NCBI GenBank assembly: GCA_964511345.1
Contig: CAZEEV010000001.1
Coordinates: 72,089 to 136,088 of the forward strand
From: an uncultured Pseudomonadales bacterium
Lineage (GTDB): Bacteria; Patescibacteriota; Microgenomatia; UBA1400; PJMF01
Direction of reading: 5' to 3'
DNA length: 64,000 nucleotides
Shown here: positions 547 to 58,870 of the stretch, piece by piece
How positions within the stretch are numbered: the stretch's first letter is position 1
How the letters are laid out: every line of letters begins with the position of its first letter
The notes under the pieces: model-generated
Database searches by the model: none
What the model was told of the DNA's origin: nothing
What the model saw: only the letters and a program-made list of their open reading frames with translations
Made by a program: the position numbers and the translations under genes

Positions 547-1518
547 AACTAGCAAAAACCAGACAAATACAGTAATTAATAAAGGTTTGTCTTTCAGTAA
601 AATATCTTCTGGCGCTTCACCTTTATTTTCTTCATAGATTAATTGTAAATATCTCATCACTCCAAAAATCACGAATGGTAGAGTGAGCATTAATAGTTTT
701 TGAGACTGTAGGGTTTTAGGTAGAATGAAATACAGTTCTGGAAATTTTTCGTAAAGTAAATTGACACCTTGGCTAGTGTAACTTTGAAAAGTGAAAATGG
801 CGTAGGTTAACCAAGTAGAAGTGGCAAAAACAGCCGTATATTGATCTAATAATCTCTGGCTATATTTTTTTAAACTTAGTCTGGCAAATTCGACGTGATT
901 ATTACTAAGTAAAGTTCGCTCACTTTGTCTTTTACCCACTGCCATAAACAAAGATACGGAAATAACTGTTAATAAAAACCAAACGTTCATATGCAAATTG
1001 ACCACCACTGCGCCAGCATAAACCCTAATGAGAAAACCCAGAGCAATGACGATGATGTCAAAAATGGCATAGTGCTTGAGCTTACTGGAATAGATAGTTT
1101 GTAAAACAAAATAAGCAAAAACTAAGATTTTGAAAAAATCTGGTAATTGTAGTGATAATAAAAACACCAAAGCTAAACCACTTACGGCACTAAAAATAGC
1201 GATGGGAATCGGTAATTTTCCAGAGGCAAGAGGACGATTTTTTTTGAAAGGATGCTTGCGATCGGATTGGATATCAAAAAGGTCATTAACAACATAAATA
1301 CTAGAAGTCAAAATACAAAAAATGACAAAAGCGTAAGTCACGATTAAAAAATAAGGAGCCTGGCCACTTTCTTGATAAAAGAAAAAACCAGAAAAGACTA
1401 AAGCTGCATAAACGGCAAAATTCTTAAGCCATTGTTTAGGGCGAAAAGATTTAATTAAAAGAAAAATTAAATTATCCATTTTGCTTAATTTTACTATATA
1501 CCAAAAAAGCGAAAACAA
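526..1518 (-). CDS. UbiA-family polyprenyl-phosphate transferase, decaprenyl-phosphate phosphoribosyltransferase (DPPR synthase)-like
   Basis: Polytopic membrane protein with motifs NDLFDIQSDRKHP (NDxxDxxxD), RPLASG and a second FDIIVIA Asp-rich motif. Confidence 0.7.
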   Translation of the reverse strand: MFSLFWYIVKLSKMDNLIFLLIKSFRPKQWLKNFAVYAALVFSGFFFYQESGQAPYFLIVTYAFVIFCILTSSIYVVNDLFDIQSDRKHPFKKNRPLASGKLPIPIAIFSAVSGLALVFLLSLQLPDFFKILVFAYFVLQTIYSSKLKHYAIFDIIVIALGFLIRVYAGAVVVNLHMNVWFLLTVISVSLFMAVGKRQSERTLLSNNHVEFARLSLKKYSQRLLDQYTAVFATSTWLTYAIFTFQSYTSQGVNLLYEKFPELYFILPKTLQSQKLLMLTLPFVIFGVMRYLQLIYEENKGEAPEDILLKDKPLLITVFVWFLLVLFLIYA

Positions 1519-8829: not shown

Positions 8830-9969
8830 ATGAATGCGACTACTCTTTTACTTTTAGCTTTATTTTTAATTGCTGTTTTAGCCAGTTTTTATTTTTTGCT
8901 TAAAAAACTTTTAGAAGAAAAAATGGGCAAAAACTCCGATGAACAAATTGAAGGCATGATTCATAAAGTTTTTGGTATGGCTTCCAATGAGATTGCCATT
9001 CAAAGTAAAGGCATCTTGCAAGGTGAAAAAGATTTAATTAAAAACGATCTTTCTAATAAACAGGCTGCTATTGAAAAAATGATTAAGGATCTTCGTCAAG
9101 AAATGGGTGATCAACAAAAAGAAATTCGCTCCATTGAAAAAGAACAAATTGATAAAATTAGCAGTGTCAAAACTGCAGTTGAAGAGCATCGCCAATTAAC
9201 TAAAGAATTAAAGATTTCCACAGAACAATTGGCTAAAGTGTTATCTAATAATCAGACTCGCGGAGCATGGGGAGAACGTATTATTGAAGATTTGTTACAG
9301 GCTAATGGTTTACAAGAAGGGATTCATTATTTACGCCAATCTAAATTAGGCGATTCAAGCATGAAGCCAGATATTACTTTGCTTCTCCCTGATCACCGTA
9401 ATGTGCCTGTTGATGTCAAATTTCCTTACCAAGAAGTACAAAAAATGTCGATGACTGATGATCAAAGTGAAAAACAAAGCCACATTCAGCAATTTAAGAG
9501 AGATTTAAAAATCAAAGTCGATAAAGTTGCAGCTTATATTTCTCCAGAAAACGATACTTTGGATTATGCGATTATGTTTGTGCCAAATGAGGCTTTGTTT
9601 TCTTTTATCAATCAGAAATTTCCGGACATCATCGATGAAGCTTTGGCCAAAAAAGTGATTATTTGTTCGCCTTTTAGTTTCTTGATTGTGGCGCGTACCG
9701 TAATGGAGAGTTATCGTAATTTCATGGTGGGTAAAAAAATTAAAGAAGTCATTAAGCACATTGATGCTTTTGCGACCGAATGGCTTAAATTTGATGACGA
9801 GTTTGGTAAGTTTGGTAGAAGTATTGAAGCCTTGCAGAAGAACTACGAAACGCTATCTACGACTAGAAAAAGACAGATGGAAAAGAAAATTGCTAAGATT
9901 GAACAATATCGCGGTAGCTCCGCAGAGTTATTAGAAGAAGGTGAGAAACCAAAGCTCTTAGCTTCCTAA
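8830..9969 (+). CDS. rmuC: DNA recombination protein RmuC
   Basis: N-terminal TM, long coiled coil, then RmuC core (VDVKFPYQ, IMFVPNEALF). Confidence 0.7.
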   Translation: MNATTLLLLALFLIAVLASFYFLLKKLLEEKMGKNSDEQIEGMIHKVFGMASNEIAIQSKGILQGEKDLIKNDLSNKQAAIEKMIKDLRQEMGDQQKEIRSIEKEQIDKISSVKTAVEEHRQLTKELKISTEQLAKVLSNNQTRGAWGERIIEDLLQANGLQEGIHYLRQSKLGDSSMKPDITLLLPDHRNVPVDVKFPYQEVQKMSMTDDQSEKQSHIQQFKRDLKIKVDKVAAYISPENDTLDYAIMFVPNEALFSFINQKFPDIIDEALAKKVIICSPFSFLIVARTVMESYRNFMVGKKIKEVIKHIDAFATEWLKFDDEFGKFGRSIEALQKNYETLSTTRKRQMEKKIAKIEQYRGSSAELLEEGEKPKLLAS

Positions 9970-11094
9970 TGGTTTATTAATTAAATATTTATCAAAAAAG
10001 ATTAAATCTTTTTGGACAGCTTCATTCCAATTGGGTTGCAGATTGTGATTAGCACCAAGATATTTATAAAAATCAATTTTAATTGGAGCCTTCTTATTTT
10101 CCGTGCTGCTATCGGTGGCTCGACGCTCATTTTCCAAGTCAACTTTAGTTAAAAATTCTTCCGTCCAGGAAACTAGAGCAGAATCATCATTGGTGCCGTG
10201 TTGAATTTGAATTGGTCCGTGCAACTGATCTAAGTGCTGAGTAATGGAAAAGTCAAAAACATCATAATCTTCTTCAAAAAGAGATAAATATTTGCGAGTT
10301 TCTTTACCTTCGTCTGCATATTCATCACTGAAATATAGAATAGAGTAAGGGAAAGGCGCTAAGACTGGCGCCCAAAGAGTAGTTGGTAAATTACTATTCA
10401 TAGCCTCCAAAACTGAGACAGCAATTTGTCCGCCATTGCTGTGTCCCCAAATGCCAATTTTGCTTGAGTCTAAAGTGATCTTTTTAATGGGAAAATTTTC
10501 AAGTTGGCCTAAATCTATTTCTGGAAAAGTTTGCACGGTTTTAATTAAATCAATAACATTAACTGTTTTAATAAATCTTGCTTCCCAGGTATCAGCCGGT
10601 TCAGAGTCGCTTTCACCGAAACCTAAGAAATCTGGGGCTAAAGTTACATAATTATTCGTAGCGAAAACCGAGGCAGCATTTTTAGTACCTAGACCAGAAT
10701 AATAATTTTCTATTGGAGCATAACCTCGCAGCATAATAATCGTAGGGTTTTTGGAGGTTTCATCAAATTTGTTATCAATTTTCAAGTTGAGAGCTCCAGA
10801 AATATTTTTTCCTTGACTTTCATATTTGAAAAGTAGGACATAGACGTTAGAATCTTTATCTTCGCTAATGATTTTTTCAACCTTCAATCCTTTTTGAGCA
10901 GTGAAATCTTTTAGACTGAGGTTTTTAAAAGAGTATTGTAGCAATGGCAGTGCTTTTTCTATTTTTATTTGTTCAGTGATGGTTTTTCCAAAAGGAGCTG
11001 ACTCATTTTTGAGATAAAAATAGGCAATCACAAAAGATAAACAACTAGTTAGCACTAATGACAAACAGATAAAAATGAAGTTTCTTGTTTTCAT
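9958..11094 (-). CDS. Secreted/anchored alpha/beta-hydrolase (S9/dienelactone-hydrolase-like)
   Basis: N-terminal TM/signal and nucleophile elbow GHSNGG; C-terminal Asp/His region (LGANHNL). Confidence 0.6.
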   Translation of the reverse strand: MKTRNFIFICLSLVLTSCLSFVIAYFYLKNESAPFGKTITEQIKIEKALPLLQYSFKNLSLKDFTAQKGLKVEKIISEDKDSNVYVLLFKYESQGKNISGALNLKIDNKFDETSKNPTIIMLRGYAPIENYYSGLGTKNAASVFATNNYVTLAPDFLGFGESDSEPADTWEARFIKTVNVIDLIKTVQTFPEIDLGQLENFPIKKITLDSSKIGIWGHSNGGQIAVSVLEAMNSNLPTTLWAPVLAPFPYSILYFSDEYADEGKETRKYLSLFEEDYDVFDFSITQHLDQLHGPIQIQHGTNDDSALVSWTEEFLTKVDLENERRATDSSTENKKAPIKIDFYKYLGANHNLQPNWNEAVQKDLIFFDKYLINKPLGS

Positions 11095-11280
11095 TTAATT
11101 GAAGTATAACAGTTTTACAGAAATTCTCCCAAAATTAATACTTGCAGAAATACCAGATGATATTAAAATGTTACAACATGTCAGTAAGTAAAAATTATTT
11201 CCACTTCTTTTTGGTCATTTTGCGCAAGAACGTGGTGGGGTAATTTTGTTGCATTAAAATAAATAAAAACAAAAATAAAC

Positions 11281-11307
11281 CCCGCCTTAAGAAGCGGGTT
11301 TTTTTGT
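11281..11307. terminator. Bidirectional rho-independent terminator hairpin
   Basis: aaaCCCGCcttaagaaGCGGGttttttt; the reverse complement is also followed by a T-rich run. Confidence 0.55.
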
Positions 11308-11436
11308 ACTTTTGATCTTTAACATTAACTAAGGGTTGCCTCAGCCTTCAATTATTCGAAAGTTAAGGCAACCCTTTGTGGCTAGAGCAAAGCGCTCTAG
11401 TTTCGAAGGGAAAAATTTTTTCTAGGAGGAAAAACC

Positions 11437-11589
11437 GTGTCAACAAAGAAATCTTCCAAGAATCAAAGCAGAGAGATTAAAAAACAAAAGGGCCCCAGGT
11501 GCCCAGTTTGTGGAAAACCGCATATTATTAAAATATGCCCAGAATTGAAGAAAAAAAGAGGGGAAAAGAATGGCACGCCTCCCTCCTAG
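11437..11589 (+). CDS. Unannotated 50-aa basic small protein with CxxC..H..C zinc-knuckle-like motif
   Basis: Perfect SD AGGAGG 7 nt upstream of GTG. Translation is MSTKKSSKNQSREIKKQKGPRCPVCGKPHIIKICPELKKKRGEKNGTPPS, followed by a 10-bp GC hairpin at 11601..11626. Confidence 0.35.
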   Translation: MSTKKSSKNQSREIKKQKGPRCPVCGKPHIIKICPELKKKRGEKNGTPPS

Positions 11590-11600
11590 AATCCAAAAAA

Positions 11601-11636
11601 CCTCCGACCCTATAAAGGGTCGGAGGTAAATCTTTT
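11601..11636 (+). terminator. Hairpin CCTCCGACCC-tataaa-GGGTCGGAGG followed by a T-rich stretch
   Basis: 10-bp perfect GC-rich stem immediately after the sORF stop and before the aspS -10-like TATAAT. Confidence 0.5.
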
Positions 11637-11664
11637 CAAATTTCAGTTATAATACTCGTTATCT

Positions 11665-13083
11665 ATGCAAAGAACTCTCATTATCGATTCACTTCAAAAA
11701 ATTGGTCAAACAGTTCGTTTGTGCGGCTGGGTAGACAGCAAGCGTGATCACGGCAAAGTGACCTTTATTGATTTAAGAGATAGAACTGGCAAAATTCAGG
11801 CTGTTGGTATTGGCGGCAAATTAAGTGATTTAAGCACAGAGTCGGTAGTAGAACTTATTGGTCAAATTAACGCTCGCCCAGAGAAACTAATTAATTCGAA
11901 CTTACCAACTGGTTCGATCGAAATTTTTGTTGAAGAATATAAAATTCTTAATAAAGCTAATGAATTACCCATTTTAGTGGAAGGTGATGGTTTAGATATT
12001 AATGAAGAGATGCGTCTCAAATATCGCTATCTTGATTTGCGTCGTGAGCGCATGCAAAAAATTATTCGCTTGCGTTCTAAATTTTATCAGGCATTGCGTG
12101 AACAATTAGAAAAAAAGGATTTTGTCGAAGTCGAAACTCCCATGTTAACTAAGTCTACTAAAGAGGGTGCGAGAGATTTTATTGTGCCTTCTCGTTTTAA
12201 TCCAGGGAAATTTTACGCTTTACCTCAGAGTCCACAACAATATAAGCAATTGCTGATGACTGCTGGTGTAGAAAATTATTATCAATTTGCGCGTTGTATT
12301 CGCGATGAAGATTTACGTGCCGATAGAGGTTTTGAATTTACTCAACTTGATTTAGAGATGAGTTTTGTCACCCAAAAAGAAGTCATGAACAACGTTGAGG
12401 AGATTGTTAAAAATGCTGTCAAAAAAGTTGGTGGTAAGCTTAAAGATGAAAATTTCCCAGTGATTGCTTATGAAGATGCCATTTCTAAGTACGGGGCTGA
12501 TAAATTTGATTTGAGAAACGAAGAAGAGAAAAAAGCCGGTATTCTAGCTTTTGCTTGGGTAATTAATTTTCCTTTTTTCAAAAAAGTGGATAAGAAAGAT
12601 ATTGCTGAAGTTAGAGATGGCAAGAGTGGCTGGACTTTCACTCATAATCCTTTTTCTAGCCCAATTCCAGAGTGTTTAGAAGATCATCAAAACGGTCGCA
12701 ATATTGGCAAAATTATCACTGCTCAGTACGACTTAGTTTGTAATGGTTATGAAGCTGGTGGTGGCAGTATTAGAGCTCATGATCCGGCAGTTTTAAAGAA
12801 AACTTTTGAAATTATGGGTTATAACGAGCAAGAAATTCAAGCCAGTGTTGGCCATATGTTGGAAGCATTCAAGTTAGGCACACCTCCACATGGTGGTATT
12901 GCGCTCGGTCTTGATCGTATCGTGATGCTTTTAGCTAACGAAAATTCTATTAAAGAAACCATTGCTTTTCCAATGAGTTCTTCTGGTCGCACTGCAATTA
13001 TGGATGCACCAAGTGAAGTTTCAGCTGAACAGTTAAAAGAGTTAGCTATTTCAATCACCCCTAATTTAGCTACAATGAAATAG
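11665..13083 (+). CDS. aspS: Aspartyl-tRNA synthetase, bacterial-type core lacking the GAD insertion domain (472 aa)
   Basis: Class II motifs FRDE-like CIRDEDLRADRGFEFTQLDLEMSF, QSPQQYKQLLM, GGGSIRAHD, GLDRIVML. Confidence 0.9.
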   Translation: MQRTLIIDSLQKIGQTVRLCGWVDSKRDHGKVTFIDLRDRTGKIQAVGIGGKLSDLSTESVVELIGQINARPEKLINSNLPTGSIEIFVEEYKILNKANELPILVEGDGLDINEEMRLKYRYLDLRRERMQKIIRLRSKFYQALREQLEKKDFVEVETPMLTKSTKEGARDFIVPSRFNPGKFYALPQSPQQYKQLLMTAGVENYYQFARCIRDEDLRADRGFEFTQLDLEMSFVTQKEVMNNVEEIVKNAVKKVGGKLKDENFPVIAYEDAISKYGADKFDLRNEEEKKAGILAFAWVINFPFFKKVDKKDIAEVRDGKSGWTFTHNPFSSPIPECLEDHQNGRNIGKIITAQYDLVCNGYEAGGGSIRAHDPAVLKKTFEIMGYNEQEIQASVGHMLEAFKLGTPPHGGIALGLDRIVMLLANENSIKETIAFPMSSSGRTAIMDAPSEVSAEQLKELAISITPNLATMK

Positions 13084-57864: not shown

Positions 57865-58062
57865 TTAGTAATGAATTGTAAGAATTGCCACTTGCAATGA
57901 TTTTTCATTTTTGTTAGTTTGATTGTTGCTGTGGAATGTAGTGAAAATCTACGACTGTGCCGCAACGGTGATTCTCATTAAGAGATTAGTCCGATCTTCA
58001 GCAAAAAAGAAATCTTGACGAGCATCGAAGTAAATTGAAAAGTGATATTTTTTAGAATCGAT

Positions 58063-58147: not shown

Positions 58148-58870
58148 ATGAGGCTAAGAAAGGTAGAAATGAACAGATCAGCTCTCGAAATGGCAGCAAG
58201 TATTGGGGTCGACCCAACACAAATGAATGAACAATGGAGATCGCTTAATGGTATTAATTTATCGTCGGCACTAAAAGATTTGGGGAAAGAAATTAACATT
58301 AGTGATTTGCAGTGGAATACAATTCTGGCTCAAGCAGGGTTAGGATTAATGAACAGCTTGGATTCCAGAATTGTTTCATTACAAAATAAAGCTGTTGAGC
58401 AAGCAACTGCCATTGAATTAAGACAAATGTTTGGCAAACCATTGTCTTTATTAGCTATGCCGGTTTTTGTCGAATTAGAAAAAATAGAGGTTGCTTCCAA
58501 GGTTTCTTTGAAAGAAGAGTCAATTTCCATGTCTCAAATTTGGGAGCAAATTAACAATCGCTTGCTTTATATGATTCAACTTTTTTTAGCTGAAAGAATT
58601 AACTCATTGGAAGAAGAAAAAAAGTCTCATGAAGAAGCTTTGAAAAATTCAAAGGCGGAAGCTGAAGGAATGCCTGCTTTGGCAGAAACAAGCAAAGAAG
58701 TTGGGGAGCAGTTTGATAAAAAATTTAAAACGTTAGATAAAGAAAAAGAGTCTTTATTAAATATTTTTAATAAAGTAACAAAAAACATAGCTGGTTCGAT
58801 TGAAAATGTATTTGAAACAACAGTTTTTAGTGCTAGTTTGCAAAGTGTTAATCCAGCGCCAGTTCAGTAA
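58148..58870 (+). CDS. Hypothetical protein (probable true start at 58169, MNRSALEM, with AAGGT SD)
   Basis: ORF of 240 aa; the listed ATG is buried in a 10-bp hairpin; acidic coiled-coil C-terminal half. Confidence 0.5.
   Translation: MRLRKVEMNRSALEMAASIGVDPTQMNEQWRSLNGINLSSALKDLGKEINISDLQWNTILAQAGLGLMNSLDSRIVSLQNKAVEQATAIELRQMFGKPLSLLAMPVFVELEKIEVASKVSLKEESISMSQIWEQINNRLLYMIQLFLAERINSLEEEKKSHEEALKNSKAEAEGMPALAETSKEVGEQFDKKFKTLDKEKESLLNIFNKVTKNIAGSIENVFETTVFSASLQSVNPAPVQ

Follow-up and report, generated by a model that had tools for sequence, protein, structure and literature searches.

A 64,000-nucleotide stretch of contig CAZEEV010000001.1 (positions 72,089 to 136,088 of the forward strand; NCBI GenBank assembly GCA_964511345.1), from an uncultured bacterium of the Patescibacteriota (Microgenomatia), was analysed at its full length and is called the window; all positions without a locus label are counted from its first nucleotide. 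This report concerns the 570 nt (11095-11664) between a divergently transcribed hydrolase gene and aspS, the gene of aspartyl-tRNA synthetase (AspRS), where a preliminary description made from the sequence alone had pointed out hairpins and a small open reading frame (sORF). Comparison with related genomes indicates that these 570 nt are an unannotated, compact locus that does not belong to aspS and has three units: a leader-peptide attenuator (unit A, 11142-11305), a structured RNA leader (leader B, 11331-11410) that makes up unit B (11331-11627) together with a Shine-Dalgarno (SD) sequence, the sORF for a zinc-knuckle peptide and a terminator hairpin, and the promoter and start of aspS (unit C). 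The layout of attenuator, folded RNA leader and zinc-knuckle gene appears to be common to a small group of Patescibacteria. The features are listed here by unit, with the divergent neighbour last.

11142-11169, plus strand: promoter A, TTGCAG (11142-11147), a 16-nt spacer and TAAAAT (11164-11169)
11178-11243, plus strand: attenuator leader open reading frame (ORF) of 21 amino acids, MSVSKNYFHFFLVILRKNVVG, start and stop conserved
11199-11205, plus strand: segment 1, TTCCACT, inside the leader ORF, a possible anti-antiterminator strand pairing with segment 2, as read from the sequence
11234-11240, plus strand: segment 2, GGTGGGG, from the final codons of the leader ORF; a complement of the 5′ arm and a mimic of the 3′ arm of the terminator
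11280-11305, plus strand: attenuator terminator, CCCCGCC (segment 3, 11280-11286), a loop, GCGGG (segment 4, 11294-11298) and T7 (11299-11305)
11331-11376, plus strand: helix P0, a long imperfect hairpin; its 5′ arm (11331-11349) is rich in pyrimidines, its 3′ arm (11358-11376) SD-like (UUAAGG)
11372-11410, plus strand: helix P1, CCCTTTG (11372-11378) with CGAAGGG (11404-11410), enclosing P2
11382-11400, plus strand: helix P2, CTAGAGC (11382-11388) with GCTCTAG (11394-11400)
11424-11429, plus strand: SD sequence AGGAGG, 7 nt before GTG 11437, with an A/U-rich linker
11437-11589, plus strand: sORF of 50 amino acids, MSTKKSSKNQSREIKKQKGPRCPVCGKPHIIKICPELKKKRGEKNGTPPS, with the knuckle core C22-P35 at 11500-11541; conserved motif with codon variation
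11600-11637, plus strand: terminator-like hairpin ACCTCCGACCC-TATAAA-GGGTCGGAGGT and conserved tail AAATCTTTTC (an interrupted U-tract)
11648-11667, plus strand: -10 box of aspS, TATAAT (11648-11653), and its ATG at 11665; no SD, very short leader
11665-13083: aspS, a bacterial aspartate-tRNA ligase (NF001750, 596 bits)
11103-11132, minus strand: promoter-like site of the hydrolase gene, TTGGGA-18-TATACT with TG, 8 nt from the end of the -10 box to the ATG
9958-11094, minus strand: S9/alpha-beta hydrolase gene, the divergent neighbour, with a match to Pfam Peptidase_S9

The comparison set consisted of 80 loci fetched through relatives of AspS, labelled Pacebacteria, Microgenomates, Parcubacteria or "Patescibacteria group", with TM6 as the label of one complete genome; a pattern scan of metagenomes gave five more true loci. 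Two loci, L082 and L083, duplicate L004 and L011. The sORF and the hairpins are kept upstream of aspS in relatives, with nine orthologues of the former and 13 sequences bearing the leader. The region had been called unusually GC-rich, but its 35.4% differs little from the 34.3% of the window, and 38% of all 570-nt intervals of the window equal or exceed it. Its structured character is borne out: the predicted fold beats shuffled sequences on the plus strand (11300-11445, z = -3.4) as on the minus strand (11270-11445, z = -5.8).

Unit A begins with promoter A, which was missed by a strict scan because its -35 element has only three of six consensus matches. The pattern TTGCAx-N16-17-TA(T/A)AAT is kept in all close copies, with TATAAT in L008, L009 and L012. 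Promoter A ends 8 nt before ATG 11178, and the messenger RNA (mRNA) is therefore predicted to be leaderless or nearly so; in every attenuator copy the -10 box lies 7-9 nt from the ATG of the leader ORF. The frame of this ORF is maintained in about 28 copies, each encoding 20-30 amino acids with a common pattern of a polar N/Q/Y/H start, a hydrophobic run, R/K and G/V-rich codons, while the antisense frame has no conserved start in alignment A1; by this comparison the leader ORF is judged to be coding. Behind the ORF, each copy has a spacer rich in A and then a GC hairpin and U-tract. The preliminary description had noted a bidirectional terminator at 11281-11307, and CCCGCCTTAAGAAGCGGG followed by T7 is indeed found there and flagged on both strands, but it had not been recognised as part of a separate upstream attenuator. 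The terminator is invariant in close relatives and present in all copies, at -9 to -15 kcal/mol.

Comparative evidence indicates that segment 2, at the end of the leader ORF, is an antiterminator strand whose pairing with segment 3 excludes the terminator. In the window the duplex of segments 2 and 3 has an energy of -15.7 kcal/mol, against -8.4 +/- 2.2 for shuffled sequences (duplexfold). In 13 close copies the corresponding duplexes range from -10 to -17 kcal/mol, in 15 distant ones from -12 to -22 kcal/mol, where dinucleotide shuffles give about -8 +/- 2.4; the difference is significant in 12 of the 13 close and 14 of the 15 distant copies (26/28), and the duplex is mostly stronger than the terminator itself. 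Lineage-specific compensatory changes link segment 2 to the terminator stem in L013, L014, L018, L009 and L041. The stem CCTCGC/GCGAGG of L013 is matched by the ORF end GCGAGGTA, and stem and ORF end have changed in step in L014 (CACAACCCCT and AGGGGTTGT), L018 (TTACTACCCCGC and GGTGGGGTAGTAA) and L009 (AGCACCCCGC and GCGAGGTGCT). The motif GCGGGG is preserved in differing reading frames (GCG|GGG in the window, G|CGG|GG in L008), and this constancy despite a change of frame argues for selection on the RNA. Segment 2 can also pair with segment 1 further upstream, in a helix of 7 bp in the window and L003 (three of them G-U) and 8/8 in L009 and L012, with a C-to-U/G-to-A co-change in L084; the helix is weak in L002 and L004.

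Besides the copy of the window, a search with nhmmer found the attenuator in 13 close loci and L041 (14 in all) at E <= 1e-17 and, with weaker scores, in about 15 more distant loci; it always adjoins aspS. A permissive Rfam scan of 11000-11750 gave sub-threshold matches to the Phe, Leu, Trp, Thr and His leaders (19-30 bits), all on the attenuator and driven by its terminator. Attenuators on the opposite strand, 100-700 nt upstream of aspS, were observed in L006 (1770-1944, minus strand), L041 (2731-2908, minus strand), L032, L020, L028, L013, L025, L065 (two copies), L037, L068, L033, L018, L051, L014, L044 and L070. These opposite-facing copies precede heterogeneous orphan genes of 55-746 amino acids, several of them led by an SD sequence and starting with MSPAQ, and the cargo genes behind distant attenuators have no Pfam domains and no shared theme. 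The site adjacent to aspS behaves as though one conserved sensor governed a variable cargo.

Leader B is an 85-nt element with three helices, P0, P1 and P2. A covariance model (R1) built from six sequences scores 98 bits at leader B and recovers 19 copies on the plus strand. They come from 13 distinct genomes or contigs and all lie in the region upstream of aspS, where a locus holds one or two of them; a scan of the 64-kb window with R1 found no leader B beyond the locus. Among 20 aligned rows, one of which is a palindromic minus-strand match of P0, 92% of the cells are paired and 20 of 28 pairs have changed on both sides; none of 500 shuffles was as good, and sliding the partners lowered pairing to 29-60%. 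Changes on both sides affect 9 of the 14 pairs of P0 (91% paired), 6 of the 7 pairs of P2 (97%) and 5 of the 7 pairs of P1 (4/5 in one block and 1/2 in the other, 88-92%). G-U pairs dominate at one fixed position of P0 (14 of 20 rows) and recur in P2, and because they lie on the plus strand, leader B is assigned to that strand. The loops of leader B, that of P0 included, vary in length and sequence. Both hairpins of the preliminary description are part of this structure: GGGTTGCCT (11333-11341) and AGGCAACCC (11366-11374) are perfectly complementary over 9 bp with 24 nt between them, and the 7-bp hairpin CTAGAGC-aaagc-GCTCTAG (11382-11400) belongs to the conserved RNA. No Rfam family accounts for the hairpins, whether in a scan of the window at gathering scores or in permissive scans of 11000-11750 and of nine related loci, among which nothing was consistent.

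Three further features proposed for leader B were rejected. The duplicated 8-mers TTCGAA(A/G)G that had been thought to allow alternative pairings do exist, TTCGAAAG at 11355 and TTCGAAGG at 11402, and both are unique in the window, but they are no conserved switch, one copy (TTCGAAAG) being TTTGAAAG or TTTGAAAA in relatives; the actual competition, which L011 and L029 lack, is between AAGGG (11331-11335) and GAAGGG (11405-11410) for CCCTT (11372-11376). Sequestration of the SD sequence is not a conserved feature, its predicted pairing ranging from 0.00 to 0.94 among copies. An upstream ORF from GTG 11378 through P2 was discarded for lack of a conserved frame relative to the main ORF; its GTG is missing in L008 and in module 2, and the changes in P2 are compensatory as in an RNA. 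Between the terminator and P0 (11307-11330) lies a block, GATCTTTAACAT(T/C)AAC, that is invariant in close relatives and has no sigma-70 consensus; L009 and L012 carry a similar TTCTTTAA(A/C)A there.

The sORF, running from GTG 11437 to 11589 and containing CPVCGKPHIIKIC as first noted, is read from comparison as a real gene for a small, conserved and unannotated zinc-knuckle protein. It was found upstream of aspS in eight genome sequences fetched through AspS, the window included, and in the metagenome locus L084 (carriers: window, L003, L004, L005, L008, L009, L011, L029 and L084). In these nine orthologues the C, C, G, H, C and P of CxxCGxxHxxxxCP are the sole invariant residues, and their codons vary synonymously (TGC/TGT, GGA/GGG/GGC, CAT/CAC and all four proline codons); in the closest informative pair, L011 and L084, the ratio of nonsynonymous to synonymous differences (pN/pS) is 0.13. 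A six-frame search of about 620 kb with the regular expression CX2CX3HX4C gave eight matches just upstream of aspS and a single one at another place. The label "CCHC-like" given in the preliminary description is apt in that the knuckle is Cys2-His-Cys, but the spacing is CX2CX3HX4C in 9/9 orthologues, not the classical CX2CX4HX4C, and PF00098 is not among the Pfam matches at E <= 1. Binding of Zn2+ through Cys3His is predicted from the invariant C, C, H and C and from an AlphaFold2 (AF2) model made from the single sequence, in which residues 21-40 form the knuckle and a short helix with a predicted local distance difference test (pLDDT) score of 82-88, while the Lys-rich tails are at about 60. 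RNA or the ribosome is the most likely binding partner of this highly basic peptide, with its one compact knuckle and its disordered tails rich in Lys.

Searches placed the peptide in no described family. A word-indexed protein search with the 50 residues found no homologue, an exhaustive phmmer search of 1.8 billion representatives found one spurious repeat protein sharing just RPxCxxCGKP, and Foldseek, run with the AF2 model against the PDB, found nothing usable. The peptide scored above the cutoff of no Pfam or NCBIfam model, ribosomal-protein families included; sub-threshold matches were to Pfam eIF3g (PF12353 region; four of nine orthologues, best E 0.028), NCBIfam uS14-Z (13 bits against a cutoff of 77) and PDB profiles of uS14 and bL32 (E 0.014-2.5). 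The hairpin behind the sORF had been described as a 10-bp GC terminator; it is there (11600-11627), but by scan it has 12 pairs, eight of them G-C. An antisense ORF of 37 amino acids (11463-11576, minus strand) is preceded by AGGAGGGAGG, the reverse complement of the C-terminal sORF codons CCTCCCTCC, and in close relatives CCUCC-like runs recur at the 3′ end of the sORF and in its terminator, on the 5′ arm.

The preliminary description was right that an AGGAGG at 11424, separated by a 7-nt gap from GTG 11437, leads the sORF and that most genes here lack such a sequence: 53 of the 56 window ORFs of at least 100 amino acids have nothing SD-like before their first start, and no other intergenic AGGAGG in the 64 kb is properly spaced from a start codon that opens an ORF. 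In 14 of the 56 ORFs a strict TAnA(A/T)T box ends 4-14 nt before the start, against 2.8 +/- 1.6 at random positions, and many genes are therefore likely to be leaderless or nearly so. The genome seems to run largely on mRNAs that are leaderless or have very short leaders, often with one promoter per gene. Leaderless initiation is not open to an ORF that starts 260 nt from the 5′ end, which would account for the strong SD sequence of the sORF; the simplest reason for it is the long 5′ leader before the sORF, in a genome where leaderless mRNAs prevail. A search limited to the literature library at hand found no paper linking the candidate phyla radiation (CPR) to leaderless translation or to elements such as these.

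In relatives, one or two copies of leader B are found, each before a different tiny and very basic ORF. All copies are followed by (A)AGGAGG, GGAGG or AGGAG, 4-10 nt, a start codon and an ORF of 15-50 amino acids, and most cassettes end in a GC hairpin with a tail of the type (A)A-T-C/T-T-T-T (AATCTTTT, GATCTTTT, AATTCTTT, AATTTTTT); exceptions include module 1 of L004 and module 1 of L002. Besides the knuckle, the ORFs encode a Cys4 ribbon (MAKKTRKHCKRCKRVTVHIHGQCQRCVRPK) and peptides of the types MKCQNCGRKVPDDCNICPYCKHK..., MKKDKKKKKGHRNKKGNK and MARKKKPSGEKKSHQKKK.... A diverged second leader stands in tandem in L004 (2706-2877), L011 (2726-2910), L002 (2746-2913), L084 (1203-1383) and L085 (6344-6510). 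The ORF of the second cassette encodes a poly-lysine peptide of 15-18 residues (MKKDKKKKKGHRNKKGNK or MKKDKKKKRGHKKKH) with a pN/pS of 0-0.06; the window has no second cassette. In L029, which lacks the attenuator, the leader is preceded at 65 nt by TTGACA-16-TATAAT, a promoter matching the consensus at 12/12 positions, and in L007, which lacks both attenuator and leader B, TGTTATAAT precedes an SD-led basic sORF. The module-1 ORFs of L002 (2574-2642) and L087 (3222-3302) differ by one A in a homopolymer (A8 or A9), which turns the C-terminus ...KKKVRRYMNGA into ...KKKCAVI; this difference could be an assembly error or a phase-variable length. Upstream of the cassette, L005 (2308-2509) and L007 (about 2481-2690) encode another small basic family (..KPTPTRTAVEKFT..GWLxCLLKxQxPHDSSRxER..KK), which is found in loci without the hydrolase gene and the attenuator.

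We consider it probable that attenuator, leader B and sORF form a small regulated locus that is independent of aspS and works as follows. Promoter A would start a leaderless mRNA at or adjoining ATG 11178, in which segment 2 of the 21-codon leader ORF could pair alternatively with segment 1 or with the 5′ arm of the terminator, by a 1:2 / 2:3 / 3:4 logic. A ribosome reaching the stop codon would mask segment 2, so that the terminator forms and transcription ends; a ribosome stalled or lagging in the N-Y-F-H-F-F-L-V-I codons would leave segment 2 free for the antiterminator, and RNA polymerase would read on. The read-through RNA would carry leader B as two stacked hairpin domains (P0 and P1/P2), then an exposed AGGAGG and the 50-codon zinc-knuckle ORF, and would end at the hairpin at 11600-11627; the SD sequence would be needed in a cistron that, unlike most genes here, is distant from the 5′ end. 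The product would be a basic zinc knuckle, most likely RNA- or ribosome-binding, and the most likely role of leader B is to stabilise the short mRNA, to process it or to serve as an operator for a shared trans-acting factor. A scan of 11305-11331 found no promoter-like site, and the cassettes of L029 and L007 have their own promoters; the cassette of the window is therefore read as expressed by read-through from promoter A.

Several points weigh against this reading or narrow it. The only ground for read-through is that no promoter could be recognised, and a sigma-70 scan may not suit the promoters of this lineage; the conserved GATCTTTAACAT could be an atypical promoter or a processing site. 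No codon is repeated in a run in the leader ORFs, where N, Y, H, Q and F are only enriched before or in segment 1, and the helix of segments 1 and 2 is moderately supported as an anti-antiterminator. Distant attenuators point away from aspS to unrelated orphan genes, so the link to the cassette is clade-specific. At least five unrelated types of peptide follow the same leader, which speaks against simple autoregulation by any single product. The AF2 model has a mean pLDDT of 70 with single-sequence input, and binding of zinc and of RNA by the peptide are predictions.

A different reading, raised in the preliminary description, makes the region and its sORF a cis-regulatory leader of aspS, a leader peptide or attenuator controlling AspRS. 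It has in its favour that the region lies directly upstream of aspS in every genome that has it, that a hairpin stands 37 nt before the aspS ATG, and that an Asn codon is conserved next to segment 1 in the upstream leader peptides; AspRS can serve tRNA-Asn where asparaginyl-tRNA synthetase is lacking. We nevertheless hold it to be highly improbable: GTTATAAT-N11-ATG is conserved before aspS in all close relatives, and the -10 box is fixed 11-12 nt before the ATG whether zero, one or two cassettes are present (none in L006 and L010, a different one in L007). The cassette of the window has its own terminator and most others likewise end in a terminator hairpin, the sORF has no Asp codon (and two Asn codons) and is under purifying selection as a protein, and the attenuator faces away from aspS in most lineages. 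Rfam scans gave no T-box match, at gathering scores in the window or permissively in 11000-11750. By these comparisons the region is taken to be independent of aspS. A lysyl-tRNA synthetase downstream, which would have made the Lys-rich ORFs classical leader peptides, was rejected; the QSPQQYKQ motif and the NF001750 score of 596 bits identify the enzyme as AspRS. Its 472 residues match the 590-position bacterial model in two stretches, from which it is deduced to lack the usual insertion domain.

It is somewhat unlikely that the small basic peptides are ribosome-associated factors like ribosomal proteins, with leader B and the SD sequence as a translational feedback operator that, for example, mimics a ribosomal RNA site or reports free anti-SD. 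This idea draws on the precedent of rpsU (bS21; PMC9976891, PMC7797042), on the absence of several small ribosomal proteins from CPR lineages (PMC9297842), on the sole well-placed intergenic strong SD sequence of an SD-poor genome (53/56), on cassette ORFs that are all tiny and extremely basic, many with zinc motifs like those of zinc-type ribosomal proteins (the weak uS14 type Z and bL32 matches among them), and on the resemblance of P0, with its pyrimidine-rich 5′ arm and UAAGG/UGAGGA 3′ arm, to an SD:anti-SD duplex. However, no ribosomal-protein family is matched above threshold, the peptides turn over rapidly between close genomes and the cassette is missing from L006 and L010, unlike core parts of the ribosome; a single leader serves five unrelated peptides, and the SD sequence is more simply explained by an internal cistron in a leaderless genome. 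A ligand-sensing riboswitch, for zinc or another metal, controlling small metal-binding peptides would suit a fold conserved before unrelated ORFs, many of them Cys- or His-rich, the AAGGG/GAAGGG competition in some lineages, and the pairing of the 5′ arm with the SD sequence in minimum-free-energy folds of L011, L029, L008 and L012. It is very unlikely given loops and both helix tips that vary in length and sequence, few conserved unpaired positions, no multi-helix junction, no Rfam match, an alternative pairing lost in L011 and L029, and Cys-free poly-Lys ORFs behind the same leader. Type I toxin-antitoxin-like modules, with a small toxic peptide behind a structured 5′ untranslated region, are no more probable than a leader of aspS: the cassettes do occur in tandem with peptides under 50 residues and rapid turnover, and some orthologues have hydrophobic tails (L029 NALVAFFKRIFGV, L008 MKNLILSLVIWV), but the window peptide is hydrophilic and basic without a membrane segment, the SD sequence is not consistently sequestered, and there is no conserved antisense promoter, the minus-strand TTGACA-17-AAAAAT at 11443-11415 being absent in L011. 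That promoter-like site, a terminator-like site on the same strand and the greater stability of the minus-strand fold in the window (z -5.8 against -3.4) would also fit a minus-strand small RNA ending at the terminator at 11298-11281. This idea is scarcely credible and was rejected on the strand asymmetry of the G-U pairs, which in P0 and P2 would be A-C mismatches on the minus strand, and on the non-conserved promoter; the C-A mismatches favouring the minus strand are specific to the window, and model R1 matches that strand solely through the palindromic P0.

By a conjecture that we think unlikely, the attenuator next to aspS in Patescibacteria reports slowed or stalled translation and, in this clade, switches on fast-evolving micro-proteins as a translation-stress response. 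Stalling might come from ribosome-targeting compounds of the host bacteria or from NAY and aromatic codons being poorly decoded, and the zinc-knuckle and poly-lysine peptides, made by a rare SD-dependent translation behind a structured leader, would act on the ribosome or on RNA.

Outside these subjects, the promoter block of the hydrolase gene, AAGTATA(A/G)CAG, is conserved in alignment A1. A match to the adenosylcobalamin (AdoCbl) riboswitch, barely at the Rfam gathering score (50.4 against 50), lies at 57906-58050 (plus strand) of the window upstream of an ORF at 58148-58870, and L029 has a partial, sub-gathering match to transfer-messenger RNA at 936-1009 (plus strand; 23 bits, E 2e-5), about 2 kb upstream of aspS.

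Like the trp, phe, his and antibiotic-responsive leader attenuators, unit A has a short upstream ORF, an intrinsic terminator and an antiterminator that uses the 5′ arm of the terminator; a further upstream segment may, as in those systems, sequester the antiterminator, and the position of the ribosome would decide which helix forms. Unlike them, its leader ORF is leaderless and has no run of cognate codons, the peptide pattern itself (a hydrophobic run and R/K) is conserved, and the downstream genes are variable orphans or tiny basic ORFs in place of a biosynthetic operon or a recognised resistance gene; in contrast to the named leader families, it is not in Rfam. In Flavobacteria, rpsU (bS21) is the single strongly SD-led gene of an SD-blind lineage (PMC9976891, PMC7797042). 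The sORF is similar in that an extended SD sequence marks the gene of a very small, very basic protein in an SD-poor genome, but its product is not bS21 and matches no ribosomal-protein family, and the long 5′ leader alone can explain the SD sequence.

The knuckles of eIF3g and Mit1 (CxxCGxxHxxxxCP) have, like the peptide, one Cys2-His-Cys knuckle with identical spacing and identical G and P positions; this likeness spans 15 residues at marginal values (E 0.003-0.03, with 0.005-0.015 for the eIF3g-type knuckle against the PDB) and may be convergent. The zf-CCHC knuckles of retroviral nucleocapsids share the basic flanks, whereas the peptide departs from PF00098 in its CX2CX3HX4C spacing and as a stand-alone bacterial peptide of 21-50 residues. 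One-domain C(P)XCG zinc-finger micro-proteins of Haloferax volcanii, smaller than 70 residues, are mostly unannotated and of unknown function (PMC6562870, PMC11241148). They too are stand-alone and built around a CPxCG-type zinc motif, but they have two C(P)XCG motifs (Cys4) where the peptide has a single CPxCG and HxxxxC; the two are not homologous in sequence and belong to different domains of life and regulatory contexts. With two long hairpins 5′ and one 3′ of a short cistron, and in tandem, leader B may by analogy be likened to structured 5′ stabilisers or processing hairpins; 5′ stem-loops protect mRNAs, and RNase III sites lie between the early genes of phage T7.

Attenuation is a mechanism of a known kind; its leaderless version in Patescibacteria, the leader B motif and the micro-protein family are absent from Rfam 15, Pfam and NCBIfam. 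Patescibacteria make up a large share of bacterial diversity, and to our knowledge almost nothing is known of their gene regulation. Three parts of the locus escape current annotation and can be put to the test: an attenuator that depends on the ribosome, is widely conserved and has a leaderless leader ORF, a new RNA motif, structured and strongly covarying, for which Rfam has no counterpart, and a family of basic or zinc-knuckle proteins of 15-50 amino acids under purifying selection. It also indicates that a canonical SD sequence persists on genes behind regulatory leaders where most genes lack one and many appear to start at or near the 5′ end of the mRNA; the occurrence of SD sequences may therefore be a practical finder of hidden regulated genes in such genomes. 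Should the stress-response reading be true, these micro-proteins would represent a translation-stress response that no annotation pipeline has seen.

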